A DNA stretch of 61,263 nucleotides from Spongospora subterranea f. sp. subterranea. Its lineage: Eukaryota. This document shows positions 2,818-58,700 of this stretch, piece after piece (within the stretch, counting starts at the first letter, position 1; every line of letters begins with the position of its first letter). The DNA lies in NCBI GenBank assembly GCA_049724395.1, contig JAUGWO010000004.1:1-61263 (forward strand), written 5' to 3'. Under the pieces are notes generated by a model, which ran no database searches, was not told the origin of the DNA, and saw only the letters and a program-made list of their open reading frames with translations. Both the position numbers and the translations under genes were made by a program.

Positions 2818-4079
2818 TATACGAGTACCTAGATCATATGGCCATCAGGGCTAACACTATATGTCAACTATAGGACAATTAGTGTCACTCACACTAATAC
2901 CTGTAAGGTACAGTACAGCAGAGAATCGGTGGTTGAAAAATAGTGTCACTCACACTAAATACGGTAAACGGTGTAGTGAGGTGGATGGGACGGTTAGATT
3001 CGGTACCAACGCTTCTGCCAGAGACAAAGTGCTGTTCCAAGCAATCGCTCAGATGTCCCACGCTGTATTAATGACAGAACTATCAAACGTTGTCACACCA
3101 GAGATGTCACGTTCGAGAGAGGAGGAGGTTGATATTGGCAATATAAGGGACCAGTGATGCTTAGATAATTGGACGTCGTCCGAACTGAGCATTTGCCCGG
3201 AACAGCACCTTTTCTACCGCAGAAGCTTTAATACCGAATCGAACCATCCCATCCACCTCACTAGGTAAGTGTGAATGAAGTTCCTGAAGTGTGAATGAAG
3301 CTCCTGATTAACAGATCGATTCATCCTCTTCAGCAAGCTCCACATGTCATCTGAGAATAATCGTGCGTTTTGGTTGTTCAGGTGATTCGGCAGCTTTGAA
3401 TACATCCCCAATTGTCGGTGCATTGTGAAAAGTCTAAGGAACTAGCAAAGGGATTGATAACCGAATACAGAACATCCAACGCACTTACAATCATAGTCTT
3501 CTGACAAACCAAGAGCAACTGAATTAAGATACTGGCGCGCGTTTTTAAAAAAATTATCCGCCTTGTGAAGCTTATGGCGAGAACGACTGACTAGACAAGT
3601 ATCAATGTATCAATCAAACTGAAGCCAATTTGCTTGTCGGCGTGCCCTCGAGGACGGCAAGGCGATGCTGAAAGGCGGTGACGAAGTTGAGATACACCAC
3701 AACGAGCTCTTCGTCGCTCGCCGACTCGGGCCTCCTTCAGCTTCGCCGTGGCAGAGGCCAAGTCGGCCTCAAGCTGCTCCATTTTTTGTTGTCGCGACGA
3801 CATCTTTTGAAATGCAATGACGAGACTCCGTGGCACAGACATCTTCGAGTCGCATGCGTCAAGTGTTAAAGGAGGGCACTCCATCGAGTCTACTGTACTA
3901 CTGTGCCGCGCCGCGTGTAACTAATGAAGAGTGTATATAACTAAGTTAGTCCACTGGGGCACTTATTTTTGGGTGGACTGTCCACTAGTGGACAAAGACA
4001 CTTCCGGTTTAAGACCTTACATACGGTAATCTGTATTTTGGCCTGTATTCATTTCGTTTGGTGTTATTTATGGGATGAC

Positions 4080-5850
4080 ATATTTTGAAAACTACTTTTA
4101 ATATTGTTTTGAAGACATAATTAATGAGGACTACAAATTTTACAGTGATGTTCATGTTTGTGTGAGGACATTTAGGGTTTGTATATTCGTATTTTATTTC
4201 TTTATTTTGAGATTCTGGTTTTAGATTTCAGAATTGTTGGTGTCATTCTTCTAATGTTTGTATGATTTATCTATATTGTGTTTCTCTGTTCGTGTTTGTA
4301 ATCAATAACATATATTTGGTAAATGTTTGATTTGGCATTGACATACCTACATCAATCGTTGAGATAATCAGTCTGTAATGGTTGTGGTGGTTGAGGAAAG
4401 GAAAACGAAAAGTACAAAAACTAAAGCACAAACACTTACTTAAGCTGGCAAAAGAAGCTAGTAATGACAATACAGGAACAGCAACGTGGAAGATGCTGAA
4501 AACTCTGGTTCCGCAAACAAACAAAAACATCGTATCTTCGCAATTCGTACCAACATGCAGTTGAAGAAGCAAATCTAATCGCCGAAAATTTCAGCACCAT
4601 TTTTTAATCCACTCAATCTTGAGCTATCCAAGAAAAAGCGAACAAAATACAATGAATTGGTCATGGACCTAAAATGACCAAGGGCTTGTAGCCATCCACC
4701 ACTCATTAGTGACAGCCCTCGAAAACCAACAATCTCATGATATGGGACTGTCCAAATTCACTGCAATTCTACAACAAAGCATTCAATACCGATACGTTAG
4801 AGTGACCAGGTGCAGGTTCTGGAACAAACACCTGATGGCGGCACTTAAATTAACAATCAAATTCAGACGCAAATTACTCACTGCGATACGCTCTAAAACA
4901 AACGAAACACAAATTACAAAAAGAAAAGAAGCACTAAACAAAGCGGCAATAGAATTTAGGAAACAATATGTCAAAGCCAAAAACAAACATCTAACAAAAA
5001 TACTCAAAACAGCATGTGAGGATAAGACAGGAGCACAAATTTGGAGACTGGTAAAACAGGTCAGCCCACAAACAAACAAAAGAAGAAAGAATTACGAAAC
5101 CAAGCCAAAAAAGAGGTGGAAAACATCGCCTCGAAATTTGAAATAATCTATAGTGCACCAGATCTCGAAATGACTGAAATAGAAAAAATGGAGCACCAGC
5201 TACTGCTGGCAGAATTATTGAGAGAACGACTGAAAAAACCAACAGCAAATATCACAATCAAAGAGCTAAAACGAGCAGTTAAAAAGCCAACAGCAAGTCT
5301 GCTGGAGTCAACAGCTTGATCGAACATATGTGCACAAATTACATAATCAAGGACACATTCTAAAGGCAATCAATACCGACATGATTGGGTACTTTCCACA
5401 GGAAATGACGATCGCCAAAATACGGCCACTACCGAAAGCGAAATCAGGAGAATATCGACCGATATCATTATTGCCTAACATAGCAAAGATTGTGGAAGGA
5501 ATAATTGAACATAGAATAAGACAACAAGCGAGCGAACATACACCAGATAACCAATCTGGATGTCGGCCAGCACACAGCACAACCCATGCATTGTTAAGAC
5601 TGCTACATAATGCAGGATTAGCGGCGGCAAAAGACCAACAATTCGCCATGATTGTATACGATTTCATGAAGGCATTCGATAGAGTGCAACGAACACTGCT
5701 AATCCAGAAAATGAGGAGAATGGGGATAGATCAATATCTGTTATTACTGATTAATGACTGGCTAACAAACAGAATATTTGAGGTGAATTACAGAAACACC
5801 TCTTCGAAATTACATAGACAGGAGAATGTTATTCCACAGGGATCCAATAT
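4080..5850 (+). mobile_element. Fragmented non-LTR (LINE) retrotransposon relic, RT truncated at the PQG motif
   Basis: 5330..5932 contains YRPISLLPNIAK, QSGCRPAHST, DFMKAFDRV, WLTNR, IPQGS. 4405-4530 is a paralogous fragment of 4960-5080. About 4080-4400 is T-rich and probably an inverted piece of the same kind of element. Confidence 0.85.
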
Positions 5851-6339
5851 AGGTCAGCTTTCCTCGAAGCGCCGTTCGATCAAAACAATTATGGTGATGC
5901 AAATGAATCAGGGCGCGCTGCTGTTGCCGTAAACGATTTTTTCATGAACCAGTTGAACAATCCATGATAGGTCAAGATACTTTTTTGCCATTTCATTCAA
6001 GGGGCTGAACATAAACCATGTGAAAGACGGTTTTGCAATGATTATGAGAAGTTGCCGTTGTTCGTGCGAGTTATATCTATCCAGACCCTGCTCAAGAAAT
6101 GTGCCTCCTCTTTGAATATATTGTCATCAATTTATTCATCAAGATCATAGCGAGTCTACGTCGTAGCACAAAAATGGGAGTGGTCATGGGGATTCGCAAT
6201 TGGCGGATTTGGCTGATGGTACAACCGCAACCATTGGGCGGTGATCACTGTGAATAAACCACTGAACGTTCCATGGTTAAGCAATGGCAAAACTGTTGTG
6301 TAGTTTATGAGGATAGACCACGTTAGGAAATTGTGCCGT

Positions 6340-16699: not shown

Positions 16700-17800
16700 C
16701 AATGTTTCTTGACACGAAGCTACTCCTAAAACCTGTGTTCACGACCAGCAAGCAAACGATAACCTATCATAATTTTCAACAACCTAAAGTAAGGTAGGCA
16801 GCCAAAATCCCATAAAAAATCAAACAAACAGCGGATAATGCACAGGACAAAACCTACACATTACAACCATCTCCGAATCCAATGGACCATATGCCGACAG
16901 AATAAACAAGAACGACACGACATGGATAGACAAGCGTACGTGTATGGCATACCGAAATGGGAGGTCGATAGCGGCCACGTTCATAGCTCCATCACGCCTG
17001 CAAAAGCCATAACCATTGCTAACAGATTATCACGCACCGAACCGCAACGCAGGCACAAGAGGCACTGCCAACCAGCAACATCACTCATGGTGTCCTACCT
17101 GTGATAACTGGTATCCCGATGGTACATTATCGCGTCGCTTTAGGAATTGGAATGGCGTTAGCAAAATCACCTTTCATCCGAAACACTGGATGGGCAAGCC
17201 GGGCTGTCTCAAATATTTGGAATGGCTTCCGTCGTGCAATCCGGCAGAGAGTTTGGGGATGCCGCTTCAAGCAACTTTTTGCGAAGCAGTTCTCGAAAGA
17301 GCGGCTGAACTCGACATCACTTTGGGATTAAAATTCGTGACTTGATTACGAACAAGCTGCTGAAGCAGTCGTTCAAAAAGTGCTATGCGTCTTGGAAAAC
17401 GCGTTTAGATCCCGGTCCCGGAGGCCAGTTCAAAGTTGACCGCAAAGATGTGATACAATGGATGGAAGAAGCTACTGAAGAGGTGAATGACAAGCTGTCA
17501 TCAACACTCTTCAAGGCCTTTGCCACGTATGGGCAAGATCACCGATATGAAGATCAGTCGCTGTTAGCTTCGTATCTTGCAAAGCAAGAAGAAAATGGGG
17601 TTTACAAGTCACTGTTGGCCAACCAGCAAGCTATAGAGTTAGATTGAGGTCGAATATCGCCTCTCACGAGGTTGTGGCATTTGAAAAATTGTGGGAAAAA
17701 ATAACAAAATAAACACCTTTTTTGGTCAATTCTTGCACCCTACATTAAGTCAAACACAATTTGAAAATAGGACAGGAGTTCTTTTTGTTAAGTACGGTTC
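16700..17800 (+). mobile_element. Degenerate pogo/Tigger-like (DDE_1) transposase relic
   Basis: Fragments HWMGKPGCLKYLEWL, FCEAVLERAAELDITL and VDRKDVIQWMEEATEEV...KAFATYG resemble the pogo DDE_1 C-terminus; multiple frameshifts; boundaries approximate. Confidence 0.55.
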
Positions 17801-17929
17801 CACAATTTTTCAAAATGCCACTACCTCGTGAGAGGCGATATTCGACCTCAATTTAACTCTATAGCTTGCTGGTTGGCCAACAGTGACTTGTAAACCCCAT
17901 TTCTTCCTGCTTTGCAAGATACGAAGCTA
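17565..17929. repeat. Inverted repeat, arms 17565-17694 and 17800-17929
   Basis: About 130-bp arms, reverse complementary with a few mismatches, covering the 3' end of the pogo-like ORF. Confidence 0.95.
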
Positions 17930-18024: not shown

Positions 18025-19025
18025 TTCCGGTCAGGTGAAACGTTTCTGGCCAGGTGGCATTTTTCCGGTCAGGTGAAACGTTCTGGCCAGGTGGCACATT
18101 TCCGGTTACCCCTCATCACCCTCACATCCTCACCAGCCCTTGTGCATCTAAGTAACTCTGCTGCAGACACGCACAGACTTTGAATATGAATCGGATAGCA
18201 GGCAGACCAGCATCAGCGAATGTCAGTGACACAGAGGGATGGCAAACATTGCCTATCTTGCACCCTACACTTGTGCTGATGTGGGAAGATCCTGTGCCCT
18301 GCACGGATATGAAGTCAAGACACGACACCCTAGCCATCCCGAGTAGTGCGACCGGCACTTCCCTGATATAGTTGTTGGTTCATAATATCCCTCATTCCCC
18401 TGATGGACTCTCGGATGAAGTACTCGTCGCTGTCTATATTCTCCATCATCGTGTGTAGCATGTGAATGGACTCGGGCTTCACCTTTGCTACCTTCATAGG
18501 GTAAGTCACCTGAACACCGCGCATGATCTCACTGAGATTTACAGTGGTGTGCTTCATAAACGTCTCTTCGGTACTTCTCTCCATCAGGTAGCTGAGACGC
18601 TATTGCATCCGATTCGAACAGAGGTTTGGTCTGAATACTCCACTTCTCGCATTCTGCAACTGAGGTCGGATCCTTGAGAAAGTACAGTTGCGCCTGCACG
18701 AAATCTTGCGTGGTACTCCTGACAGTTCTCTGGAGCCGATGCGAGAAGTGGAGTATTCAGACCAAACCTCTGTTCGACTCGGATGCAATAGCGTCTCAGC
18801 TACCTGATGGAGAGAAGTACCGAAGAGAGACGTTTATGAAGCACACCACTGTAAATCTCAGTGAAATCATGTGCGGTGTTCAGGTGACTTACCCTATGAA
18901 GGTAGCAAAGGTGAGGCCCGAGTCCATTCACATGCCAGGTGAAACGATTCTGGCCAGGTGTCACCTTTCCGGTCAGGTGAAACGTTTCTCCAGGTGGCAC
19001 CTTTTTGGTCAGGCGGCACGCTTCT
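18025..19025 (+). repeat. About 35-bp degenerate minisatellite clusters at 18025-18105 and 18935-19025
   Basis: Unit TTCCGGTCAGGTGAAACGTTTCTGGCCAGGTGGCA, 2-3 copies in each cluster, same orientation. Confidence 0.85.
18458..18935. repeat. Inverted repeat, arms 18458-18652 and 18739-18935
   Basis: About 195-bp reverse-complementary arms; the peptide ETFMKHTTVNLSEIM.GVQVTYPMKVAKV appears on both strands in the ORF track. Confidence 0.95.
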
Positions 19026-19399: not shown

Positions 19400-20664
19400 C
19401 ACTTATGCTGCCGTCGCTGAGATGGCTGTATGGGAAAGGTTTTTTATTCATACTGTTCTTCACCTTAACTCCTTTATAGTGATTCATCAGTAATCGCCCG
19501 GTGATGTTTATCCAGGCTATACATTCATGGTCTACCAGGATCTGCTGTCCAAAATCCAAACTTTTGCGAGGTCGCAAATTTTCACGTCAACCGGAGCCCG
19601 CATCGAATGGATGCTCAGCGGGCAGTGAAATTGTTTGGGGTAGAGTCAATTGTCCAGCGCGGACGATTTTATTGCAGACATTCTGCTTTAGGTCGTGTCG
19701 AGTCGTGGACATGTGGGTGGGATGCCCAAGGCGACCACACGCCCAAATTCATGGAACTTGAAAGAGTCCTGCTGGAGGAGAGCCGTCGCCTCATCGTGGT
19801 CGCCGACAACACATGGTTCGTAGTCGACGACGACACGATTAGTTTAAGAGCACAGCGTTCATAATGCCGCAGAATCTCATGAACTACCACCCGTATTGTT
19901 CAAAATTCGAACTCCAGGCCTCCAAGGCTGCTGATACCTTTAACAAGGCCAGGCGGCAAAGTTATGTAATCGACAACATCAACAACAGTGATGATGACCT
20001 AGCTGGTGATGGGCAAAAAAGAGCTGGACGAATCAGACCAAGACATACCTGGCCTGTTCAGTACTGACTTGGGTTCATTCGGAGCATTGGGTGATGCCAG
20101 ATGCTCCATTATTAGGCCATGATGAACTAGCAGCGTCGAAAAATGTCAAGGTGCTGGGTCAGTCCAACGCTGCTCCAATGCAATTGGACGCAATCGCGGT
20201 TCGAGAGCGTGGCGATCAAAAGGCCTGTAAAGTTTGAGGTTTTATTCTCTCAAGCATTCCTTCTTTCCTTCACAAATGGATGGCCGTTTAGCATCCATCA
20301 TCGAAGTCCAACGCAACGATTACGATATTCTACCCTCGGTTTTTGATTCCGAGGAATGGACAGCGATTGAGATCGTCGCGCAGCAGCCATGTTCCTGTCC
20401 TGATCGCGATTGATCCTAAGACAAAACAACCGTTCAAACGAGCTCGACGGTGCGTGCTATGCACAAAGAGAAGTGAAGAAGTACTGCAATACGTGCCGTC
20501 AGTTTATGTGCACATCGGTTGTTGGAAAACAACGGACGCCATGCGCTGTTACTTGTCACCAGCGAAAGAAACTGGCGACAGCGCGAGATACTACCCGCAC
20601 TAGAACGAACATCGAGAGGTTTGCAGACAACTCGGCAGAAACAGTCAACATCGCCTGCTGTTGA
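19400..20664 (+). mobile_element. piggyBac-like transposase relic
   Basis: RRLIVVADNTWF (piggyBac xxDNWF-like), AADTFNKARR, and a C-terminal Cys-rich RRCVLC...YCNTCRQFMC; many stops and frameshifts; TIRs and TTAA not located. Confidence 0.6.
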
Positions 20665-21415
20665 TTTCAATGGCTGGGAGACGGGAGATAACAATGAAGA
20701 CGTGGTTGTTTTGGAAAATGATGAAGTTGCTGATGGGGAACGAGCAAATGTTGTTATAATTCATTTTGGTGCCCGACACTCAAAATACGTGCATCGGAGT
20801 GGCCAAAATGACAACGGGAATAGTGTATTCAGGTTCTTGAAAAATATCTCAAGCGTCATCCAGACCATATGATTGCATGAAGGCAAGCGACGATCGAGCC
20901 GAAATTGACATCAAAATAGCCTTGTGAGATATTCCTATTTCTCCGTGACTTTCCCCTATAAAAACAAAACTCTGTTTTATGCGGAGTTAATCGAAATGTA
21001 TTACGATTATGTGTTTGAGAGCCTGTGAAGAGAGGAGAGATCACGCGAGCGAGAGAGTGCAGGAGCGAGAGAAAGCGGGAACGAGAGAGGGGTACATGCC
21101 CGCCAGCAAGACACCATCGGTCATAAAGAGGCACAACGGTGAGACAGCATGGGACGCTCTGGGAGGCGTGACGAGGACATCGCCAGGGCGCAAAACGCAG
21201 ACCAAAACCTCTGAATGTCGACATAGATCAGCAAACGAGGCGATGCTGGGAATTTTTGACAACGCCGTCAAATGGAAACAACAATTTCCGTTGGCACTCC
21301 AAATAACCCATATTATACACCAACAATACAAAGGAATGTGATTCTCTCCCCTGCGGCATTTTCAAAACGAACCTGGTTCGGTTTGAAACGAACCTGGGTT
21401 CGAAAATCGATCGGG

Positions 21416-23754
21416 ATGGATCAATCCCAGGTCGATGTGGGGGATACCGCGGCCTTAGAAAGGCCGCACGACGTCAGGAGACGGCAACTCAAACAATCGC
21501 CAACGCGCATGAAGGGTCTAACGCCGGCTGAGGAGGATGCTGTGGCGAGCAAGGTTCAAGACGTCATGTCTCGAATGGACTTGTCGCTGTCGGCAACGAA
21601 GGTTGGCCTGATGGGGTCGCGAGTGTTAGCGGCCAATTCCTCCAGGCAATACGGATCCGTTTTCCGGGGTTTGATATTGTTTCTGAAGAGAATTGGTGAT
21701 TTTGCGTCTCTCGTCGTTTTCAGCGAGAACGCACCCTTGGAATTCTGTCCGAGCATGAGCGCCGATTCGCTTATGGCCTATATCGACTTTAAGGTATGGC
21801 ATCTCGCAACTCACTTGCCCATTGCTCACATGGCTTATATTGGTTTCAAGGTGCTGCCTTCCGGAACTCCCTTGTCGATATTTGCCGATGCCGCATCAGA
21901 CGCATCTCGTGTTGGCCCGATCCGGGATTACTTTACAGGCACGGCAATCGTGTCGTCGGGGGCATGGAACGATCCCGGCGCTTGTAATCAGCTCCTAAGT
22001 GCTGTCTCGAACCTGCACGTGGCGAAGAATCAGGGAGGGCCGTATCAAGAGCCATGCCACAACTGTATCACGCTCTATGATTCGGGAGTGTTGAGCGGTT
22101 GTCGTTTCCATGCATCACGTCCGCAGCTGTGGCGCTGTGGATCTCCCCGCGAACTTGCCGCTGTTAAGAACAGGTACCAAACTCCTGCAACGTGTCGATT
22201 TACTCCATCCCGGAGCTAAACACTGTCATAACACAGGTACCAAAGGCTCACTAAATTTGATTTACCGGACTACCAAGCCCAGGGAAACTCAGCGCTTCTT
22301 CCACATGAGCTTGTTGACGTTCGCACAGCTCTGTTGAGTCGAAACTCCATTTCGGCATTTCAGGAATGGGTGATGGTCCTGTTCCATGTCCAGCTTTTCC
22401 TGCGAGCCAAAGAAGGGTGCGAGTTTCAGCTGGCAGATTTTGTGCCAGGGTTAACCACTATCAACCGGGACAGCGGGGAGGTGTTGGCTCTTGGCATCAA
22501 GATTAAGGGGAAATCAGACGAATCCTTCAAGCTGATGATGATTTGGCGGAACGACCAGGTTCCGGAGCTTTGTCTGGTCAGACATTTACTGGCCTGGATC
22601 CATCTGAGACCCAGCTCAACTGGAGATTATCTGTTCCCTAACCGTAATGGCGGGATTATGGAATATAACAGGTTCAACCACAGGTACCGTTCTGTTCGGG
22701 GGATGTGTTGACTGACCCATGACACTCAACAACTGATATTGATTCATAGCTTGAAGACTCTGTTCCGAACAGTTATCGGCAGACGAGGGCCTTGGGGGAC
22801 ACACACTTTGAGGAAGACAGGGTACCTCATGGCAATATGGGGTGGTGGCCAGATCGAACAGATAATGCTATCGGCTAGGCACAAGACCCTGGCCAGCGCC
22901 CAGAAATATTTTCAGGACGCTGCTGCTCTTTTGCATCTGGCCAAGATCCAAAGGTGAAAGTGAGACGGAACTTGATATTTGTTGCTTAGTTACAGTGCAG
23001 GGATAACATTTTATTGAAATATGCTTCTGAATGGCATGCAATTCATGTCATCAACCCTGGCCAATTTCTGGCGTTAAACAGGAACGTTCAGCAAACCACT
23101 TCTCTGGAAGATCATGCTAGCAGCATGATTGCCAGCCTAGTGCAACAGAAGGCTCTGCCTGTTCATTTTCAAAACGTGCCGCTTCAAATTTCCAAAGCGC
23201 TGCTGCTGATGTCCGAAGCCACAGAGGACTTGCAGAGGGAAATGGACGACATCCTTAAGCAATTGAGAAATGCGGGCTTGGAAAGTCTGGGCTCGAGGCT
23301 TCTGCAGATAATGCAGAAATTACGTTCCGCCGCAGATGCCACCAACGATCAGGTCGACAATGATTCCGCAAATAGCATTGTGGCTCCCTCATCTGCAGAT
23401 CCGGCGGTGCAGCGGCCTGAGAAGCGCGCTCGTCCAAGCGAGCAGCTGTTTGATGTCGCCGATCGGAAAAACCTGCGCAAGGCAAAGTCCACCGCGGCGA
23501 AGCTGGCCATCGTTCGGGATATCAACGAGGCCTGTACAACAGCTGCAGAATCCCGAATGAGATTTTGCCCGGCGCTGAAAACGGTTTTCTATTCAGTGGC
23601 CGGCCCGATCATGCGGTGCCTGATCGATCACTGCTCCGGCGACGACGCTGAATTTTCCCGAAGATGGGGGTCGAACTTCTCGCACAGCGACTGGGGGCGA
23701 ACGAGGTGCCCCGGACCGGATCCCGACGATCGCTGCGGCTTTCTCCACCAATAA
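21416..23754 (+). CDS. Intron-containing tyrosine recombinase, about 701 aa
   Basis: Exons 21416-21793, 21851-22173, 22237-22683, 22750-22953 and 23001-23754 join through GT-AG introns into one 2106-nt ORF. Catalytic residues: R (LFLRAKE), K (KIKGKSD), HxxR (GTHTLRKTG), H and Y (ARHKTLASAQKY). Confidence 0.88.
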
Positions 23755-23861
23755 ACTGCCGTCGCCTTCTCAGTAAAATTGTGTGAACTTTTATCGGGTG
23801 AAAAATTGTGCGTGGCCGGTGTACGGTCAATTCGAACCAATCGAACCCGCTGATACATGCC

Positions 23862-24110
23862 TATTTTGTAACATTGTACCCTTGGACTTGGCACGACGGC
23901 GCAAGATACGTGGCCTGGGTCCGCATGGATTGGAGTCAAGCGGGTGCCATAATGCACGAAAAAATGCTGTGGTCGGATGGAGCCGGGAAGTGAAGGGACG
24001 CGGATGGAACCACAGCAATTTTTCGTGCATTATGGCACCTGCTTGACGCGGACCCAGGCCGCGTATCTTGCGCCGTCGTGCCAAGTCCTGGGGTACAATG
24101 TTACAAAATA
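23862..24110. repeat. Nested hairpin, arms 23862-23973 and 24009-24110
   Basis: TATTTTGTAACATTGTACC...GCTGTGGT / ACCACAGC...GGTACAATGTTACAAAATA are reverse complements apart from one short indel and a few mismatches. Confidence 0.93.
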
Positions 24111-24734
24111 TGGGTTTTATGGCACCAACCGGAGTGGAGCCAACGGAAATTGTTGTTTCCATTTGACGGCGTTGTCAAAGTTTCCAGCATCGCCTCGTTT
24201 GCTAATCTATGTCGGCATCCAGAGGTTTTGGTCTGCGTTTTATGCCCTGGCGATGTCCTCGTCACGCCTCCAAGAGCGTCCCATGCTGTTCTCACCGTCT
24301 GGCCCGCTGATGTGCCTCTTTATGACCGATGGTGTCTTGCTGGCGGGCATGTACCCCTCTCTCGTTCCCGCTTTCTCTCGCTCCTGCACTCTCTCGCTCG
24401 CGTGATCTCTCCTCTCTTCACATAACGAATTTAGCTGTTAAACCCACCCATCAACAACCCACGCAGTTTAAAACTGCGTACTACACGGTAACAACCCAGC
24501 CGTTTAAGTCGGTTTTTATGAGTTTTTTTGAATAAAATGACGGTCTGTGTGGTAGTGTTCCAGTACCCAGTCCTAGGAGTACTACGATCGTTAAGAGCTG
24601 TACGAATTTAGTTGTTACCCACCAATAACAACCCACGCAGTTCAAATGCACGCTATGTTAGTTTACTGCATAACTATTTCCAATGATCACATCTCGATCC
24701 TCTTTACATTTCGAAATAAAGATTATCGCTGCTA

Positions 24735-26678
24735 TCACCAGAACTCTTCATTATCGCTTTTGTCGGCTTCTTTTGCAATCCATGGATTCGCTAGGCGCTC
24801 AGCGTCCCATTTTTTTGTTTTTCTATGCCTTTCTTGTCTCCCCGCCTTTGGCTGTTGCGGTTGTTGCTGCTGCTGCTGCTGTGGCTGCGGCTGTGGTTGT
24901 TGCTGTGGTTGATCATTTCGGAAAGACAAGTGAGTCGTCAATGGTTGTGCATATAACTGATCAGAGCTTGTCATCACAAGGGACCGCTGCGGGGATGCAA
25001 TCTCCGGCAAAGTTGCCCTGGAATGAACCGATTCATATTGAGAGCGTTGGTGGATCGATGGAACTGGTTGTAGACGGGCAGAAGATGACAGATGGTTCAT
25101 AAGAGTCGGAGAGCTTTTGATGGCAGATGTCCTTTCATTGCTTAGTCCTGGTGCAGGCCCACCATTTCTCATCACGTCCATTACATTCACTACGATTAGA
25201 CCTAGAACTATGCCCACAACTATTATGATCACGACCAATATTTCTTGCGATATTCCCAGGAATGAATCCGGGGATGCTTTTGAATCTGTAAGGCACTGCA
25301 GGGGCACAGCAGAGTAGTAATCATGATCTGGACAATATTTTCTGAATGAAACTGTCGAGTCTACTTTGCTCTGCGCGGTTAGCTTGTTACTGACTAGACC
25401 GTATTGCAATCGATTTAGTGTTGGATCGCCCGATAACTGGCTTGTTATGGCGATAGGGACGCTCTCAGCCGTGATTTGCGAATGCCTGGAACGGGGCAGT
25501 ATGTCAAAACTGACATAGGTATGGCCTTGATCATCAACGGCAATAGGATTGATGATCCTAGATGAATCAATATACAATGATGTAGATAAGTCGATGACGA
25601 AGTTATTGAGATAGGGTGTCGGATCATCAACGTCCCATACGGCAGGAAACTGGATTTTCACGTGCTGACAGGTAATGGTTTGGCCAGTTGTTTGAACGTC
25701 CATTGACACGATAGGCGAGCAGGTTTGAAGGCCATCGGAAGCAATGACCGTGCTCTGCATAACGGCAGGAAGGCATGAAAGAGACGGTGAGCGAAAGATT
25801 GACCTGGAGATGTGATCAGATAAGTAGTCAATGAGCACATGAAGCCTCCTACACGAAGGTCAGGCGATTTGAGACGAGAGTAGCGGGTGGGATCCACTCT
25901 AACAGGAGGTTATCATCCATATATCTGCATGACACGCAATACACCAGACATGCTGTAGCGTTAGATGGTCTGCATGACACTACGTTACACTACTGACATG
26001 GTTCTTATGATACTGTTGGAAAACACATCAGAGGGCAACGATACGAACCGGTTATTAGTTATTGATCTATGATGTGACAGAATCAGGGTTCTCATTATTA
26101 TCGCGGTTAGACTATTAGACATACAGAGAGGTGAGATTGGTCAGATCAGAGGCCAGATTACTTGGGAGGACGACGATCTGACAACTATCCAACTGTAGCC
26201 GCGACACCCTGGACTGGTACCGAAAGAGACCTGGTGAAAGGCCGAAGGGGAATGAGTTCCTCGAGAGGTCAACACTCTGGAGACCCGTCAAGCAATCAAA
26301 CGTAGTAGGTGGCAAATGAGTGGCATTAATCTAAATGGAAGTAAATAGTATCGGTGATCGAATTATGAGGATGGAGTCTGAATCGCTTACCTGCTGATTT
26401 TTGACGATAAGGGTGGTGATGTCCTTTAACCGGACCTGTCCAAAGGATGGGTTCAAATTAGTGCAGGCACACAGACCGGATAATGAGTCAAACTGTCGTT
26501 GACTTAGGTCAGACGCTTGTATAAAAGTATTGCCATATGCATAGTCTATATTGAGGGCAATATTGCCATTACTGGACGTAATACTACTGGAATAGAATGT
26601 ACAGGGGAACGGGGTTGACATTGCCAGATGTACATTGACAAACAACATTATAGAGACGATTATACAGATGTATCTCAT
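24735..26678 (-). CDS. Leucine-rich-repeat single-pass transmembrane protein with polyQ cytoplasmic tail, multi-exon
   Basis: Signal peptide MRYICIIVSIMLFVNVHLA; LRRs (FDCLTGLQSVDLSRNSF, LQLDSCQIVVLPSNLASDLTNLTSL); TM ILVVIIIVVGIVLGLIVV; QPQQQPQPQPQQQQQQQ tract. Confidence 0.8.
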
Positions 26679-38809: not shown

Positions 38810-41216
38810 CTATTGTATATTGCAACATCGATGTGATGATGATTCAGTTTGGTTAGGTACAGTTCTAGGTTTGGGGGCGAACTTCTCGAAATTGACACCT
38901 TCGTCGGCTCGTTCTAACACTTCGACGATTTCTCTCTGAAGCGCATGTGTGGACTTGAACGGGAAATTGTTGAGGGATTTTTGGAAATCGTTTGTTAGTC
39001 GAACTTTGCGATATTTTTCGTCGTTTGTTGTCCGTCCCACAAGCCGCATAGATTTCCGCATTTACTTCATCGAGCTAACAGCACACGAGTTCAGCGATTT
39101 CAATGGAAATCTCCACGAACGTATATTGCTGACCTTAGGAATGAATGGAGGAACCAAGTACCCAGCTTCAAGTAATCCCCAGTCCATCGAGTCAAACCAA
39201 GGATGCTGTTTGATCTCGTCAATTCCTGTTGGCATTTCCGTCGTAAATAAAAATATTGACAACTCCATGAATTGCACCTTTACTGCCAAGCCGAAGAAGC
39301 GGATCCTTTTCCATCAGACCGGAGAGTAAGGACTTTGCACTTGGTGAAAAATATTCTTCTGGATATTCAACTTGGACATTGAGGACATTTTTATCCAGAT
39401 CTGAAAACCCAGGATGAGCGCCAAACGGTTTCTGCAAAATAACGGTTGGTGTGAGGAGCGATTGCAACTAGGTATTCCTACCTTTCCAGAAAGGAATCTG
39501 TATATCATCACTCCATAACTGAAGAAATCGCAGCATTTATCGTAGAGTTGCATTTTGATGACTTCTGGAGATGTGTATCCCGGAGTCCCCGCGTAGCCTT
39601 TGACCTTGTCATTTGTCATCACGGCCAGACCCAAATCAGATATCCGACAATGGCCTCTTTCATCCAAAAGTACATTCTCAAGTTTCATATCCCTATGCAA
39701 GACACCCTAAATGAATAGCTTCAAACGGATATATCAAGAGGGCAAACGGAACGAATGGGAAGCATTGAAGTTTTAGAGTGTTCAGGTCAACCTGTAAATA
39801 ATTGACTTGGAATGAATATGCTCCAAACCAAGTAGGATTTCTGCAGCATGAAATCGCGCTCTCGCTTCAAAGAAAACCATTTCCTTGTTTAGGTGAAATT
39901 TGAGATCGCCACCCATCATCAAATCGAGCCTGTTTTCAACATAATTAAAATATGCATCAAAAGCGGTAATCACAGGTCACTAACATTAGAAAGAGCGTAT
40001 CATTATCCTGAACTGCATACTTTAGACAGCAGACAAAGTTCGAATCCATGACGGCCAGAAGGTTCCTTTCCGACATTATGGAGTCGACAGCATCGGTGGC
40101 CATTACTCGGCGTTTATCAATACATTTGGCTGCATACCTTGTGCGACCAAACGATTAATAAAACCCGCATCGAAAGGTGTTTGACATACAATTTCCCAGT
40201 ATCGGTTTTAACACAGGCATTTACCGCACCGAATGCGCCTAAATGCAAAAAATGGTTATGCTGTGCGAACGGTTGAGAAAGAGCAACATACCACGACCAA
40301 GAACTCGGAGCATCGAAAAGTCTTTACTACTCACTTCACCCCTTTCAAAACTCTTACACCTAATGTATTTCTCGAAAAATTCGCTACTGGAAAATCGAGG
40401 AAATACATCTAATCGCAAATCATTTAAAACCTGTAACCAAACAACGGTCACAAACAGCATCAGACGCTGAAGTATCCCCAAAACTACATCTTGTGCGATT
40501 TCATCAAATAACGTCTTCAATGCCTGATTCTTCGAAAGCTTCTCTTTGGCGTCGTTCACAGCTTTTCCATAGACACCAACTGCATTAGTTTTCCCGATTT
40601 GCAGTGACAATTTGGTAGAATAATCTTCAATTTCTGAATGGCCTAGAACAATGGATTGAGAATGGTTGATGAGGTGACTTCGGCAGCGTTACCATCAAAA
40701 TGAGAGGGAATTGCACTCATATCGGACCTTTTCCGTCGCCTTCTCTCAAATACGGATTCACCCATCGGATACTTGGCACCATCTTCAGCGACAAACCTCT
40801 CGAATAGCAGTTTTCCCACTTTGAGCCTGGCAGAGGGATCCCTGAAGGAGAACCACAATCAACACATAATCGAAAAAATGATATTGATGGCATCTTCAAA
40901 ACGTAAACATGTTGCGGTTGATGATCATCATCGCTAACCTCATTTTTTTATACAGCTCCACATCCGATATGAAAACCGCCTTATCCACAGAATAATCGGC
41001 AACGAGAAAGCACTTCATTAGGTAATATCCAATCGGTTCGTAGAATATATGTGAAAACGAGATCTTGTCATGCTGGCGTAATTCCATTTCATAATCAGCA
41101 AGTGAGCTATATAACGGCATTCGGCGTATCAGGTCCAGATTCGGGCCATACGTCTCATTGCGTACAGCATTCAGATACGCTTTATTCTCTGCGATCTCCA
41201 CGAAATCATCATACAT
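38810..41216 (-). CDS. GRK: G protein-coupled receptor kinase (RGS/RH domain + AGC kinase), multi-exon
   Basis: N-terminal helix [19 protein letters not shown] domain ([13 protein letters not shown]...DVELYK...[13 protein letters not shown]); [79 protein letters not shown]; ends RCCNIQ. Confidence 0.93.
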
Positions 41217-43559
41217 ATTGTGCGAAAACTGGCAGCTCCGTTATCTAGCGACCATTTGGGTGGGCGGGCGATGGCGATATGGGGTTGAACCTGGAGCTGG
41301 CCGACGAGCGAGCAATAATAAGAACCCAGACCAGATGAGAAACTGGCTGACAGTCTGAACTGAATCCCCTATAACTACATCGACAGTCCATGGGGTGTAT
41401 CCAGCTACCAGTCACACGGCGACGCCAGCAGTCATTGGCCCAATTGCATTACCCTCAGTGATCACTGGTCACCCCGAACCATCAGCCCACGCCCTGTGTT
41501 GTGTTTCGGGTTGGCGCATTGCTCTGTACCCCATTCGCCGCCATCAGTATCCCATCATGTCCTCAGTTCCACCATTTATGCAAAAGACCACCCACTGATT
41601 TTGAAGCATTACTGTCCCCTTCGGGACGCCCCCATCAAATGCTCAAACTCTTGTTCATCACAAATCAAAAACTTTCAGAAAACAACCAAGCGATTTTTGC
41701 GAATGGTTTGTATTTTTATGCTGCCGTTGCGCAAGTCTAGCAAGGGTTCTATATCTACCCTAGCTCGACCTGTGCCTATGTTTCGGATGAAAAACGGTCA
41801 CGAATGAAACATCGGCTTTACCTTTTTATCAACAACCTACAGAACGTAGAAAACCGAAAGTCCATGTCAACCAAATGACAAAAGCGAATGGTGCACAGGA
41901 CATACTGGCACATCAAGAGCATCGCCGAATACCAACGACAAACGTGCCGCCCGAATATCCAAGGAAAACGGACTTGATAGATCAACTTATTTTTTGTGAT
42001 TGCGTTCAGCACATTTGTGTTAGGTCTGTAGTACCCATATCTACGCTAGGCCTAGGGCCAGATGACGATGGCTCATCATCTGGGCACAAACTCATATGTT
42101 TGTGATAAGGACCTTCGCTATACTTTGCTCAGCAGTCTGTTCCCAGAACAATGTTAGCTAGTGTGAAATTGGGATGACCCGACTCACTAAAACCCCGAAA
42201 CCCTTTGGAACACAGGGGAAATTCCTTACGGAACGCCATTGCTGCAGGGCATGTCGCCTTCGTCGCAAACCAGCTGATTGTTTATTGTAATTGTACACCT
42301 GTTCCTCAAATAAAACATCCTCTTCGTCTTGCCGCTTTGTTCAGAATTCGATGTGTCCACAGTGCTGCCTCGAAATCTGTTTCTAATTTATCAAATTCGT
42401 CCCTGCTGCGCTGTGTAACTTGCACTGTAGTGCTGCGCAGTGTAGTACATACTTGGTGCTCTACTGTCTGGCTTTTTTCTACACCGCGCGCGGTCCGATG
42501 CTTGGACACTCGCACAATAGGGTACACTAATGACTGTGACACTGTAAAATCATTGCAAAACTATATTGCACAGTGCGCTCCATAGACCGTCAGTATACTG
42601 TATCGGATCCATCGGAAACTGGTTAACTACGATATGCCGAGACCTCTTTTCGAAAGCGTCAACATCATAAGCACTGCGAGTACTTCGGAAAGACTCAATC
42701 GCAAACTACTCTATTTTATTCCATGTAACAAATAGGGTCAGCATTTATTTTAAACTTGAATTCTTTCAACACACGCAAAATATTGAATTGATTTTGCTCA
42801 TCCATCGTTTAAAAACAAAATGTCCTGTGTACTTAGAATATTTTCGAAGCACTCGCAGTGCGTTCAAATATTGACGCTTTGGAAAAGACCTCTCGCCATA
42901 TCCTAAGATGGAGTGCATCTCGGAGTTCAACGACTCCATTGCGGATTCGGGATCTTGAGTCTCACTAGACTCGGATGGAACTGCATTGGACGAGTCGCTG
43001 CTTCGTTCGCTTGTTCGCAGCAATGAAGATTCAGGCCGGACAACCTCTTGCGTTGTGGCTCTACCAAAATGATGACGTTCATCGCAGACACTTTCAGGAA
43101 TCGTAGCAATTGACGCTACTACAACTGTAGTGTCTGGAATGTGATTGTCAAATATACTGGCAACAACAACCCCGCTAGTGGACTCTAAAGAGGTAAAATC
43201 AATAATGAAATCCACCAAAAACCCTAACATACCTGCCACTCGAATGGATTGTTCGCGTGGTTTGGAAGACATGTCGCCAATTTCTGCATCTGGGAGACAT
43301 ACATTAGAGTAATAAAACAAGCGATCCTAACTTGAGTTACCAGGCGAAACAACAGACGACTGATCCCTCTGATGTCTTGTGAGTGGGCATCTAGAACTTC
43401 CAGACGTACTGGTTCAAAAAGTGCGCGGAGGCCAGTTAAAGTGGCCAGTCTTTTACTATGGGTACAGTACGAGAATAGACTGGCCACAAACTGACTGCGG
43501 TTTCCTATTTGACTGGCCATTGTGGATTTGGGATTTAAATATTATTATATACACCTGAG

Positions 43560-44560
43560 TGTACCGTGTCAACGTAGTTGGCTTAATCCTGGCATCTTGC
43601 CGGGTTCATCCCTTTTTACGTGAACGAACAATTGTCACCGTACGGTTCAGCGAACAAAACTGGGAACTACTGACGAACGTCGACCGCCTTTTCCCTCACC
43701 GACGTAGAAAACGCTATCCTCAACACATCATTCAGGCGGACATATTCAGGTTAACCATTTTTTTCTTCTTTTAAATTTAAATCAAGTATTTACCACTAAC
43801 TTGAAATAGTTTCAAGCCAGCATAAAATCGGAAACTTCCCATTTCATCCTGTGAAAAACTGCCCACCCGTGGCCTGATTGTATTGTAAAAATGTCACCTA
43901 TATTTGGTTACCCGATGGTGTTTCAATTGATTGTCTTTTCTTTATGAAGTCCTTCTGGGCGACGAATCCTGGGGTCTGTTGGGGAGAATTTCTGCGGCAC
44001 TTAAATGCTGACAATAACATCAATCCGATTTGTGTTGGCATTAATAAGGAAACCTTATGTTTATTTTTTACCGTACGCCACATAAACGGAATTGGCGTTG
44101 AAATTTATTGGTTTCTCATCGAAAACGGCCCTTCCTCCGTTTGTAAGGTCATCGTAATGATAGAATCCTGGCATCTTGCCCGGTTCATCCCTTTTAACGT
44201 GTACGAAAAAATGCCCACCTGTGGCAGTTGTTGCAGATATTCTCCCCAAAAGACCCCAGGGTTCGTCGCTTAACAGGACTTCATCAGAACACTCAATTGG
44301 AACACCAACTGGTAGTGAAATAAACATAACAGAGGTAGGTGACTTTTTTTTTTAATTGTCAGGGTCTCGATCTGCATTGCCTATTTACAATTTTGATATT
44401 GCTACTATTTTTGGTGACATCAGAGTTCGCTTACAGCATCACAACCAGGCAGAGTACAACACCTGTGAAATTCCTTATCAAAGCCAGTCATCAAAGTTGA
44501 CAACACCGCCTGCACAGATGGTTCCTTAGAATCTATCTGCTGGTCCCTGACCTCCTATTG
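43560..44560 (-). pseudogene. Rearranged relic of a USP/C19-like domain homologous to 58210-58700
   Basis: PSVQAVLSTLM...RCCTLPGCD...VMFISLP...GRISATTATGGHFFVHV...GFYHYDDLTNGG aligns by eye with the cargo domain of the 57372 element; internal direct and inverted duplications. Confidence 0.65.
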
Positions 44561-47453: not shown

Positions 47454-47807
47454 TTATCCTGTTCTCTTGATGATGTGCACTCCACTTTCGGTTTCGACAA
47501 TCTCACTGACATCTCCAACAGCTAAGGAAAAAGCTGCATCCTCGAATGGCTGCTGCATTTGCCCTTTCCGAAAAAAACCTAGATCACCACCTGACTTTGC
47601 AGAGCTGCAATCTGAGTGCTCGAGTGCCACATTTTCGAATATCAGACCCCCTTTCAAGATGTCATGGCGCAGACCGGACAATAGACTTTCGGCATCGAGT
47701 TTGGATCGCTGCTTGATCAGTACCCCATCAGGGTCTTTCCATGAACCAAGTCTTCGGCTCTGACAGTGTTTGAGAAGAATGTGGGATGCTCGAATTTGAT
47801 CGCCCAT
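47454..47807 (-). CDS. PIN1: Pin1-type parvulin peptidyl-prolyl isomerase without WW domain (117 aa)
   Basis: MGDQIRASHILLKHCQSRRLGSWKDP...SDCSSAKSGGDLGFFRKGQMQQPFEDAAFSL...ETESGVHIIKRTG; no WW motif seen upstream. Confidence 0.9.
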   Translation of the reverse strand: MGDQIRASHILLKHCQSRRLGSWKDPDGVLIKQRSKLDAESLLSGLRHDILKGGLIFENVALEHSDCSSAKSGGDLGFFRKGQMQQPFEDAAFSLAVGDVSEIVETESGVHIIKRTG

Positions 47808-48631
47808 AACGTTGGGAGTTGGGGCGATGGCTTGACCAATGTTTCGTTGGAATGATGGCAAACCCCGTGATGAGGAGTTGGTCAACAATTTGTGCTGGGC
47901 TGACGTTTGGGACGATCGCCAGGATAGATAAAGGAGTACATTGATGTGATTGCAACATTTGAACACTTCATTTGTTAGCGTCAATATTCGGATCATTTCT
48001 TTGGTATGGGCCCATAGTGCAGTGTCGAGTTGCCAATCAAGGTAATCCTCTATAATTCGAGTAATACTGCACTGCTTTGAACCTTGCTCAAAAAACAGTT
48101 GGCAATTTTAAAGAAGAACGTCATGTTTACCCCAGCAAATTGATGGAACCCACAAAAGCGGCTTCTCAAGACGTTGCTCGGTCTGATACTGGCAGGATTC
48201 TCAGATTGAATTTGGCATTTCTTGCAATGTTTGGAAATCAATTCCATTGTTTATTCACAACCCTCATTTTGTGTCCTGGGTGAACAGTATTGTATCCATT
48301 GGAGCTTTTTTCGTTCATGAAAGTTTTTAAAGATTGGAAAACCGTTAAGGAATATAGGAGTTGAACAATTGAATAGTTATGGTTTCATTAAGATGCGGGA
48401 GAAACCCATTAGCATCAAAATTACCAAACACTTGATTGCGCTTGGGCATGCGAATTACACAGGATATTTTGGGGATCATGGTCCGATTGGAAAAAATTGC
48501 AATAGTTGGACATCACTTAGCCATCCAATGTATCCCTTGAATTAACTATGCCAACCGTATTTGGCGTCATGGCCACGGACTACACACTGTGACATACGCA
48601 TCTTTGCGCCAATACTGTATAATCATTAAAA

Positions 48632-50033: not shown

Positions 50034-50129
50034 GAACGGAGTGCAATCTACGGAACACCGGGGTTGACTTTACTCTAACAGTGGGGGGCATGTGGTTGAG
50101 TGGTTGACTGCACCTGAACAGTGCCGGGG

Positions 50130-50918
50130 AGATGGTTGGGAGGTTGACTTCCCCTGTACAGTGCGGGTAGATGGTTGGGATGTTGACTTCCCCTGTACAG
50201 TGCGGGTAGATGGTTGGGATGTTGAATGTTGACTTCCCCTGTACAGTGCGGGTAGATGGTTGTGATGTTGACTTCCCCTGTACAGTGCGGGTAGATGGTT
50301 GGGATGTTGACTTCCCCTGGACAGTGCGGGTAGATGGTTGGGATGTTGACTTCCCCTGGACAGTGCGGGTAGATGGTTGGGATGTTGACTTCCCCTGGAC
50401 AGTGCGGGTAGATGGTTGGGATGTTGACTTCCCCTGTACAGTGCGGGTAGATGGTTGGGATGTTGACTTCCCCTGGACAGTGCGGGTAGATGGTTGGGAT
50501 GTTGACTTCCCCTGTACAGTGCGGGTAGATGGTTGGGATGTTGACTTCCCCTGTACAGTGCGGGTAGATGGTTGGGATGTTGACTTCCCCTGGACAGTGC
50601 GGGTAGATGGTTGGGGGATGTTGACTTCCCCTGTACAGTGCGGGTAGATGGTTGGGATGTTGACTTCCCCTGGACAGTGCGGGTAGATGGTTGGGATGTT
50701 GACTTCCCCTGTACAGTGCGGGTAGATGGTTGGGATGTTGACTTCCCCTGTACAGTGCGGGTAGATGGTTGGGATGTTGACTTCCCCTGTACAGTGCGGG
50801 TAGATGGTTGGGATGTTGACTTCCCCTGGACAGTGCGGGTAGATGGTTGGGATGTTGACTTCCCCTGTACAGTGCGGGTAGATGGTTGGGATGTTGACTT
50901 CCCCTGGACAGTGCGGGT
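50130..50918. repeat. 39-bp minisatellite, about 20 copies
   Basis: Unit GTTGACTTCCCCTG(T/G)ACAGTGCGGGTAGATGGTTGGGAT, head-to-tail with no spacers. Confidence 0.97.
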
Positions 50919-51686
50919 TTTTGGAAACAGAGCTTTGGTAGTTCGCGTGAAGAGTTTAGGGTGAGGGCGATGGCCGATAAGTCAAATCGACAGAGTTGTC
51001 GTTAGCTCATTACATTGATTACCTTAATTAGTGTGTAAACCTATTCAGTGTGTACACGAATACAATGTGATAAACACCTAATGTACATTATTAACAATGA
51101 ATTAGATGCGGTCTATCTTTGGATTTGAACGGTCTTTGGCATAAGGAACAATTGTCTCCAAAACTGCAAGAAATCATAAAAAGTACCCGCACTGCAGAGC
51201 AGAGTTGGCTTGCCGAAATTGTCCTGCAGCATCGAGGCTTCATCATCGGCTTCTATCTTCAGTTTCACTGCGAATTCTTTCAGATATTTGCAAGTTGTTG
51301 TGCCTATCGCATTGGAAAGCGTGTCAACACAGGCCATACGTCGGGCAAGTTGCGATCACCTTAACTCACTGCATATTCAGCTTGCTGAACAGAGAGAGGA
51401 TTGCCATTTGCGTCAATGGCTCGATATGCATCCATATATCGGTAGCATTTTCGTGCGTACCGACGTATGGCCTGTGTTGACACGCTTTCCAATGCGATAG
51501 GCACAACGACCTGCAAATTTTTGAAAGAATAAGTACAATTCTTTCTGGTATAGCTTTTGCAGGCACCCCAATACATCTCTATATAATTAGATTCGCAGGG
51601 AAACTTAGGATAGAAGTCGATGATGAAGCCTGGATGTTGCAGAGCAATTTCGGCAAGCCAAGTCTTTTGCTCTGCAAAATCTGGTT

Positions 51687-54600: not shown

Positions 54601-55638
54601 AGGAGTTAGCCAAAAGCCAGCGAACACGCCATCTATTATCACAACGACAAGTCTAAGTGACTCAATCGGCAAAGTAAAGTTTCCTTATTCAGCTGCTGTT
54701 GGATCCCTGATGTACCTGATGCTGGGAACAAGACCAGATATTGCAGAAGCGGTGGGAGCAGTCAGACGACACACGAGCAATCCGAGTGAGCAAGATGTAG
54801 TGGCACTCAAGAGAGGTTTACGATATGTCGCAGGTACTACGTCGATGGGGATCAAGTACGACGGTAAGATATCAAGCAGTAATCTTCTTGGGTTCGCCGA
54901 CGCCGATTATGCCGGCAGCGAGGTGAATCGAAAGTCGACATCGGGAGTTATTTTTATGATGAACGGTGGTCCGATAAGTTGGACAAGCAGATTGCAACGG
55001 TGTGTGTCCCTGTCAACAACTGAAGCTGAATACGTGGCGTTATGCTCAGCAGCACAAGAGGCGTCATGGCTTCGCGGTCTGCTTAAGGATACGGGATTCG
55101 AACAGGATGCGCCAACGATCATCTATGAGGATAATCAGGCGGCAATCGCGCTCGCAAACACATTCCAGACTAAGCGCAGGTCGAAACACATAGAGGTCCG
55201 CTATCATTATACCAGGGATCAGATCGTGAAAGGAGTGATTCAGCTGCGATATTGCAAGTCTGACGACATGACGGCCGATATACTGACTAAGCCACCTGGT
55301 CCAGTAATTTTTAACAGGCTCCGCAAAAGTTTCATCGCCCGTACGCTCGGGTGGGAGTGTTGAAATTACCGTTGAGTCGTCGAGCTGCGGGCATGACAGT
55401 GATCATGTCGCTCGGCGGAGCTTGGCGACGGGGAGGACTGTCCTGCCGGACTTTCCAGCCACTGTCTTACAGTGACCAATTGATGGATCAACGATGGGGA
55501 AAGGGGCAAGTGCAATCTGGCAATCATCCCTGAATAAACTTCACTTCTTAAATTGATCAAACTCTTCTCATATAGTTCAGAAGACCCGCGTTGATGGCCG
55601 ACCACGACCTCAAGCAAACGGAACTGCCACCTTCTTCA
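51687..55638 (+). mobile_element. Ty1/Copia LTR retrotransposon, degenerate
   Basis: LTRs 51687-51941 and 55358-55638 (TGTTG...CA); PBS GGTTATGTGCCCAG (copia half-tRNA-iMet type); PPT GGGTGGGAG; Zn knuckle CYNCRKAGH; protease IDSGASSHM; integrase TPQQNGKAERMNRT; RT KWVFK.K...KARYVARG; RNase H ADADYAG...STTEAEY...KHIEVRYH. Confidence 0.95.
53840..53983 (+). mobile_element. Short insertion with 13-bp TSD and (TACCA)n tail; probable 5'-truncated LINE or SINE
   Basis: CTGTTCGGATCTC at 53827-53839 and 53984-53996; the insert ends ...TATACCATACCATAC. Confidence 0.65.
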
Positions 55639-58209: not shown

Positions 58210-58700
58210 TCAGTTTATCTCCGGATTTTTGACGTAGAAAACGAAAAAAGAAAGTTGTTTACGCCCATTGGTGATCGGCGAGATAAGTACAGGCCTTCCG
58301 CCATTATCAAGATCATTATAATGAAACCAGCCCGGTATGGGCACATCAGCTCGTAGTATATGAGAGTAAAAGTGCATACCGGTACGTTGTGTGGCGCTAA
58401 TGCGCCCTACTTGCGTCCATTTGCAGCCACCAACATTCAGAATCAAATTACAGTCAATTTCCGCAGACATCAAATCTTGCGGTAATTCGACGAACATGAT
58501 TTTGTCCGGTATCTTCACCACAAACCGAGCATCTTTTAGCAACACCTATAGCCATGTGCATAAGTTGAGAGATTGCAGGCACCCATTTTGTTTATACTTG
58601 ATCGCAGCCTGGATCATAACATCTTCTGTCTGTCTCCTCGTACGCACCGTCGTTCATCAATACATCCAAGACCGCCTGTAAGGATGATTCGGCTGCCTGT
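58210..58700 (-). pseudogene. C-terminal half of a ubiquitin-specific protease (peptidase C19)-like domain
   Basis: SLQAVLDVL...RCYDPGCD [intron] ...IPDKIMFVELP...GMHFYSHI...WFHYND...FFVFY resembles the USP Zn motif, P..L..L box and His/Asp box. Confidence 0.6.

Follow-up and report, generated by a model that had tools for sequence, protein, structure and literature searches.

A probable Crypton-type tyrosine recombinase element nested in one arm of an older foldback in Spongospora subterranea

Does a tyrosine recombinase (YR) gene that stands alone between two long inverted repeats belong to an element bounded by these repeats? The question is raised by a 61,263-nucleotide stretch of Spongospora subterranea f. 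sp. subterranea DNA (GenBank assembly GCA_049724395.1, contig JAUGWO010000004.1, positions 1 to 61,263 of the forward strand; hereafter the window), in which an intact, spliced YR gene is enclosed by inverted arms between positions 21024 and 24422. An earlier reading of this DNA, based on its letters alone (the sequence-only reading), had proposed either an undescribed class of YR element or an invertible cassette, or else a Crypton abutted by an inverted, internally deleted copy of itself. The results presented below show that the long inverted arms are not the ends of the YR element; they belong to an older palindromic repeat of the host, a foldback. With a probability of roughly 0.88, the gene is carried by a 2,551-bp multi-copy YR element whose ends are a 4-bp TATT repeat, which lies inside the left arm of a foldback of ~850 bp and which likely arrived there as a Crypton-type transposon.

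In agreement with the sequence-only reading, inverted arms of about 290 bp are present: 21024-21295 and 24139-24422 are identical at 263 of 285 positions (92%), exact over their outer 112 bp, and end in TGT...ACA. As had also been noticed, the minus strand of 24009-24422 joins the 5′ arm to a 3′ region, since it matches 21024-21314 and then continues unbroken into 23866-23973. When 21315-23865 was removed in silico the left side aligned to the right arm over 425 columns (373 matches, 15 mismatches), with 26 identical bases running across the junction. The right-arm junction holds a single TATT, and the insert bears TATT at 21311 and at 23862. An insertion and its empty site produce such a pattern, although an internal deletion would give the same alignment. 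As the alignment alone fits either event, the deciding test is the point at which other copies of the element start.

Contigs from public runs were compared with 21262-21420 (contigs from three of the four runs) and with 20300-25100. Contigs starting at 21309, 21310 or 21312 run into at least four unrelated flanks, none of which resembles the arm; two of these flanks were found in both run X1 and run X2, one, a 9-letter end, in X2, and one in X8. Provided that the fitted parts start as listed, the five left junctions, including that of the window, read TATT in three cases and CATT in two. Contig depth over the gene (21427-23841) was 815-2072 in X1 and 344-1319 in X2. Depth over the left arm (21105-21265) was 65.5 and 32.2, respectively, versus 66.2 and 35.1 for a 17-kb flank contig, so that the left arm has single-copy depth and the gene body exceeds it by a factor of ~10-15. 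The contigs with 0-1 differences over 284-499 nt also had high depth (756-1009 in X1, 344 in X2); although contig depth does not equal copy number, this points to a recent burst and to some 10-15 near-identical copies, and from it we infer both the copy number and the recent activity of the element. With regard to the right end, single-copy contigs are exact over 23834-24179 (X1) and 23831-24179 (X2), and 31-letter words from the starts of these contigs would branch at 23864 and 23861. Together, the empty site and the contig break points would place the exact right end to within a few bases.

These results bear directly on the proposal that the whole of 21024-24422 is a YR transposon with terminal inverted repeats (TIRs) of ~290 bp, be it a new class or a relative of CryptonF-2_PI. 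The high identity of the arms, with their exact outer 112 bp, is what such an element would display, and CryptonF-2_PI is listed with 602-bp TIRs (PMC3212892 supplement 1), a precedent which also means that a YR element with long TIRs would not be the undescribed architecture that had been claimed. The left arm, however, is missing from the other copies, which start ~290 bp inside it. This largely refutes the idea that such repeats bound a class of YR elements, and does so by the test that the sequence-only reading had itself set. Moreover, the arm has single-copy depth whereas the body has not, and homology runs past the insertion point into 23866-23973, which TIRs do not explain. We consider this proposal extremely improbable.

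The same data address the idea of a Crypton reaching from 21024 to ~23973 and facing, tail to tail, a second copy that is inverted and internally deleted. The composition of 24009-24422, a 5′ arm and a 3′ region joined at a 4-bp microhomology, is as expected for such a copy, similar joins occur in contigs from other loci, and non-autonomous Cryptons exist (PMC3212892). This would require a 5′ arm on every gene copy, but the left end of the family lies at 21309-21316; in addition, the 3′ region is single-copy in exact sequence, whereas the body is near-identical across copies. A deleted copy is therefore very improbable: the Crypton-type nature of the element stands, but the right arm represents the second, insertion-free arm of the host foldback, in other words the empty site, and not an internally deleted element copy.

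Several observations weigh against an insertion of this kind. No X1 or X2 contig crosses the left junction of the window (depth 0 at 21298-21303). The long-flanked copies in X1 and X2 have diverged, with 5 and 9 differences in about 85 letters, so that the flanked copies in these runs are diverged members and not the near-identical ones, and the X8 copy has an internal 48-nt gap. Among the contigs no right-end flank of another copy was read, and no circle junction was present among the contig joints listed. X2 contigs break at 21316 rather than at 21312, which leaves the ends uncertain by a few bases; a 4-bp repeat is by itself weak evidence; and run X1 may be the source of the window itself. 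Finally, one X1 contig joins a left-arm variant to the interior of the right arm.

This last contig is also what would be expected if the recombinase inverted the segment between the arms, as Flp of the yeast 2-micron plasmid does, whether or not the unit is a transposon, and a Crypton YR has caused inversions in Chlamydomonas (PMC9977147). However, the arms share a 41-bp exact block at this place, longer than the 31-letter assembly word, so that graph simplification can yield the join whichever way the interior points; in X2 both arm variants are present, and the contig there ends at the 41-bp block. Because of the block and the presence of both variants in X2, the X1 contig is uninformative on inversion. 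By eye, the arms showed no loxP- or FRT-like site, and the clustered motifs lie inside the element. An invertible cassette, as the sequence-only reading had offered, is therefore highly improbable.

With the insert taken out, the locus forms a foldback of ~850 bp with arms of nearly 400 bp and a 35-bp spacer, and its inner hairpin folds at z = -26. The outer part of its left arm (21024-21314, plus strand) lies outside the YR element, as follows from its single-copy depth at 21105-21265 and from the copies that lack it. The inner part, displaced by the insertion, is found at 23866-23973 (plus strand) by the empty-site alignment and by folding, and the spacer at 23974-24008, with loose contig ends at 23973 and 24011. 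The uninterrupted right arm (24009-24422, minus strand) carries the single TATT of the empty site at 24110-24107 of the minus strand, as positioned by the alignment. Diverged contigs from X1 and X2 bridge the arm junction without a YR (24098-24161). An assembly or amplification artefact was ruled out as the origin of the foldback, as 15 substitutions and several indels separate the arms and both variants occur in X2. The hairpin at 23862-24110 was likewise ruled out as an end of the element itself, this stretch being single-copy in exact sequence. The absence of a target-site duplication, part of the sequence-only reading, holds at 21024/24422, but the ends of the foldback are uncertain: moved out to 21007/24425 they have CGA on both flanks. 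The foldback may thus reach 21007/24425 with a 14-bp insertion in its left arm; a target duplication of CGA or TA would then result, possibly by chance.

At 23842-24163 contig depth is very high (23,650 in X1), and loose contig ends are present. A tandem unit of ~27 bp appears to be present in sequence related to the foldback spacer elsewhere in the genome, and the data suggest that the inner arm or the spacer partly consists of a high-copy repeat located elsewhere.

The element itself occupies 21315-23865 (equivalently 21311-23861, plus strand), as defined by the empty-site alignment, the starts of other copies and the contig break points; it has no TIR, its ends being complementary at 8 of 30 bases. 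One YR gene fills the 2.55 kb, and there is no reverse transcriptase (RT) open reading frame (ORF) between the arms. The left TATT (21311-21314, plus strand; TATT or CATT in other copies) is likely the target copy, and the right one is at 23862-23865 (plus strand). Subterminal palindromes with four CGAACC motifs at 21360-21402 are candidate recombinase binding sites judging from their sequence, and two more CGAACC motifs lie near the right end (23833-23847, plus strand). Six of the 32 copies of this motif in the window are within 100 bp of the two ends versus 0.10 expected, for a motif picked post hoc. Three metagenomic loci, L001 to L003 (1.1-2.2 kb, one side only), are uninformative on TIRs. 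A GAACC-T-GGTTC palindrome, as at 21369-21379 of the window, is present in L003 (1419-1435) ~130 bp after the stop codon, and L002 has a ~108-bp palindrome inside the gene (479-586).

Cryptons have short direct repeats at their ends, one copy of which is the target (PMC3212892; PMC9977147). CryptonF-1_cRei, an active CryptonF, has CACCG ends, targets CAYCG and is excised cleanly (PMC9977147), and an excised circle has been proposed, not demonstrated, for Cryptons (PMC13565253). Based on the Goodwin model (PMC3212892) and the behavior of CryptonF-1_cRei (PMC9977147), a circle mechanism is predicted for the element described here. By analogy, a Cre-like recombinase would bind near both ends, with the CGAACC clusters as candidate sites; recombination between the two TATT cores would release a circle and leave one TATT behind, and the circle junction would re-insert at another TATT or CATT. 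No role in this movement would fall to the inverted arms.

The structure of the gene was confirmed. Four GT-AG introns (21794-21850, 22174-22236, 22684-22749 and 22954-23000; 57, 63, 66 and 47 nt) join a 2106-nt frame running from an ATG at 21416 to a stop at 23754. Alternative in-frame ATGs at 21272 and 21509 give proteins of 749 and 670 aa, and the 670-aa form has 669 of 670 residues in common with the S. subterranea database protein CRZ08553.1 (P0009), which we take to belong to a protein set of this species that was assembled from RNA. Intron 4 is exactly skipped in an oligo-dT RNA contig (run X16), and by eye an intron is found at the same place in two metagenomic relatives. Five overlapping, isoform-like YR protein records of S. 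subterranea are grouped in one cluster. Since these records are isoform-like and the protein set of the species was assembled from RNA (PMC4471660), the YR proteins in the database are likely transcript-derived. The isoforms P0001 and P0008 leave the frame after residue 422 or 338, and a YR without its C-terminal domain may also be made. In the region around intron 2 (22169-22244) an identical 12-nt stretch spans both splice junctions, and in that around intron 1 (21780-21856), an intron of 57 nt without a stop, the sequence is similar at both junctions; such repeated boundaries could be the mark of intron gain by duplication or insertion.

The exons, all on the plus strand, divide the protein as follows. 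Exon 1 (21509-21793) starts at the ATG of the database protein, with the in-frame ATG at 21416 upstream of it. According to the spliced protein and the alignment, exon 2 (21851-22173) encodes H151 and the C164, C167, C179, H182 cluster. The catalytic residues were assigned by alignment: R259 and K295 in exon 3 (22237-22683), and H370-x-x-R373, H396 and Y405 in exon 4 (22750-22953). Exon 5 (23001-23754), delineated by the X16 RNA contig, the structural model and the alignment, encodes a helical hairpin, a linker and a conserved C-terminal domain with C626, H630, C656 and C665.

At E<=0.001 a search of the full library returned 1,011 representatives, of which 156 also passed E<=1e-30. Six earlier proteins and 113 of the 150 matches listed were aligned in 119 rows. 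In this alignment the complete R-K-H-R-H-Y set that had been recognized from the sequence is conserved, each residue being kept in 91-99% of the rows: R259 in 113 of 114, K295 in 114 of 118, H370 in 98 of 108, R373 in 106 of 113, H396 in 104 of 105 and Y405 in 103 of 109. The Cys/His cluster also withstood comparison, C164, C167, C179, H182 and H151 being kept in 97-100%. The second cluster, in the C-terminal domain, is similarly conserved in a 65-row alignment (C626 65/65, H630 60/65, C656 57/60, C665 55/57). From their sequence, both clusters would bind zinc. The protein is unusual, as had been suggested. It has a conserved C-terminal region of about 250 aa and two Cys/His clusters, and the compared Crypton groups do not match it.

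The AlphaFold model of the YR (mean predicted local distance difference test score, pLDDT, 83) has Cre as its best structural match (E 7.1e-8, template modeling score by target 0.67). Pfam searches on single exons gave nothing useful, and a sequence search of the PDB with CRZ08553.1 and the 119-row profile gave chance matches only. For the model of the C-terminal domain (pLDDT 85.6) there was no Foldseek match at E<=0.001, the best VIA-align hit (Z 5.8) fell on a generic helical hairpin and barely covered the last domain, and the region had no usable Atlas match; these null structure searches do not show a new fold.

Of 25 clusters looked up, three contain eukaryote names, namely S. subterranea, Plasmodiophora brassicae and the chytrid Zopfochytrium polystomum (five proteins), and separate searches yielded two further P. 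brassicae relatives. One cluster member is labeled as a Fimbriimonas metagenome-assembled genome, a label that could not be assessed, and 40-44-aa Megasphaera fragments in another cluster were disregarded. Most other full-length relatives are of ~700 aa and lie on contigs of 2-7 kb. A FastTree tree of 104 of the 119 relatives, built without reference Cryptons, was used solely to choose proteins for look-up. Short-pattern scans, which are weak evidence for absence, revealed no relative in prokaryotic genomes and none in viral contigs, where two weak generic integrases were found. A YR profile search of the window detected no other family member.

The element falls within the broad definition of a Crypton as a eukaryotic YR-only DNA transposon (PMC13465315): its catalytic residues are intact and it has neither RT nor DDE transposase; it has 4-bp direct repeats, the right end being deduced, and no TIRs; and it has four other left flanks and a paralogous empty site that keeps one repeat. 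It shares with Cryptons generally (Goodwin model via PMC3212892; PMC9977147) a single intron-containing YR gene, a length of 2.5 kb without TIR, short end repeats, multiple copies and a clean empty site with one repeat. It is unlike them in its host, a member of the Phytomyxea (Rhizaria) and a new group as far as the searches reach, in its 4-bp TATT/CATT core and in its two Cys/His clusters.

Comparison with individual groups gave a mixed picture for CryptonF. As in CryptonF, the end motif matches a degenerate target (CACCG/CAYCG in CryptonF-1_cRei, TATT/YATT in our element) and a GK motif is present at the catalytic Lys. Weak NDC10_II matches in 4 of 46 relatives, one of them above the cut-off, and the Atlas feature neighbors hint at a distant kinship with CryptonF. 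On the other hand, the GCR1_C domain of CryptonF was detected neither in CRZ08553.1 (E<=1) nor in the 46 relatives (E<=0.01), and by eye the family has His (ARH) where CryptonF has Trp (GRW). With CryptonS, known from oomycetes and a diatom, the element shares a conserved non-GCR1 C-terminal region, a size in the range of 2.5-3.5 kb and short terminal direct repeats. Its ends, however, are TATT and not TATGG, TTACTG, TAATG or CTGTAAG (PMC3212892 supplement 1). By-eye comparison with nine CryptonS rows (PMC3212892 supplement 4) showed that the motifs differ throughout: FGRASD, RVKT and a Trp at the second His position in CryptonS, and FLR, GKxD, HxxRKT and ARH in our family. An assignment to CryptonS was dropped, since both terminal repeats and catalytic motifs differ. 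More generally, by eye the catalytic motifs are unlike those in the available CryptonF, S, A, I and DIRS rows of that supplement.

DUF3504, typical of CryptonA/Glomhopper, was found neither in CRZ08553.1 nor in the 46 relatives, and the conserved C-terminal region of 250 aa is unlike CryptonA. The HGGW motif of CryptonI is absent by eye, and the presence of a C-terminal domain is also unlike CryptonI, a group of insect hosts. DUF3435 of Starships was likewise found neither in CRZ08553.1 nor in the 46 relatives, and the element is 2.55 kb long with one gene and no cargo, where Starships span tens of kb and carry cargo genes. The RT or RNase H of DIRS, Ngaro and VIPER elements, whose repeats are of the ITR-ICR or split direct type, is lacking in the 2.55 kb, as is an RT ORF between the arms. 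DIRS, Starships and 2-micron Flp have in common with the element that they involve eukaryotic tyrosine recombinases, but differ in that here the long inverted repeats are foreign to the element. With Cre of phage P1 the match spans the core-binding and catalytic domains of the model; identity is 12%, however, and our enzyme has a Cys/His insert and the 250-aa C-terminal extension. No loxP-type 13+8+13 site was noticed at the element ends.

Elsewhere in the window there are 18 other long inverted pairs at at least ten places. One region, 57356-60487, has inverted arms of 577 bp (88%; arm pair 57380-60487) around nested foldbacks at 57945-58607, 58745-59043 and 59032-59229, and no YR family member was found in it. 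Long foldbacks are dense (3-685, 2430-2689, 2974-3263, 17565-17929, 18458-18935, 42628-42905, 43901-44322, 51193-51676 and 52359-52516), with no obvious target duplication where flanks were inspected. Left of the host foldback, 20292-20943 is a multi-copy repeat with a Cys-rich stretch split over two frames, reminiscent of a piggyBac C-terminal domain; it has no Pfam match. To the right, 24430-24646 is a high-depth repeat with a 25-bp direct repeat at 24448 and 24622. A tandem array lies at 50062-50918; its period is 39 bp, and several of its frames are open. Broken Tc1/mariner, long interspersed nuclear element-type RT and Copia-type fragments, as well as exons of a host kinase and a parvulin-type peptidyl-prolyl isomerase, are found at 1277-2571, 5270-5932, 53858-55363, 39314-39706 and 47454-48107. 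That the YR gene is the sole transposable element gene without lesions in the window agrees with the ORF list and with a non-exhaustive Pfam scan of 22 ORFs.

In the parts of the literature available, no report was found on Cryptons in Phytomyxea or on this YR family; because Goodwin 2003, subscription journals and Repbase lie outside this scope, the term undescribed is provisional. 'Crypton' occurs 0 times in the main text of PMC13746701 and of bioRxiv 10.64898/2026.10.14.759018, whose supplements may hold repeat libraries; among the papers listed by a further search, the sole occurrence of the word is in a list of fungal names. Within the groups compared (CryptonF, S, A and I; Repbase, including CryptonV, is outside the comparison), the element likely represents an undescribed and recently active Crypton lineage. 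The odds are slightly better than even that it is the first defined member of an undescribed, superfamily-level Crypton-type lineage, with two zinc-site-like clusters and ~1,000 relatives (50% level) in plasmodiophorids, a chytrid and environmental eukaryotes, transcribed and recently amplified in Spongospora, and with ends and target core resolved by a natural empty site.

What appeared to be a recombinase element with long TIRs is a coincidence of nesting in a foldback-rich genome, which is a caution for scans that take inverted arms as element ends. It leads to a large YR family that the compared Crypton groups do not account for, in a lineage for which no Crypton report was found. The YR transposon is also small, intact and expressed, and its ends and target are placed almost to the single base. 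Since a 2026 review states that Crypton transposition still lacks experimental proof (PMC13565253), an element of 2.5 kb whose circle junction is defined would lend itself readily to a test of the circle model.

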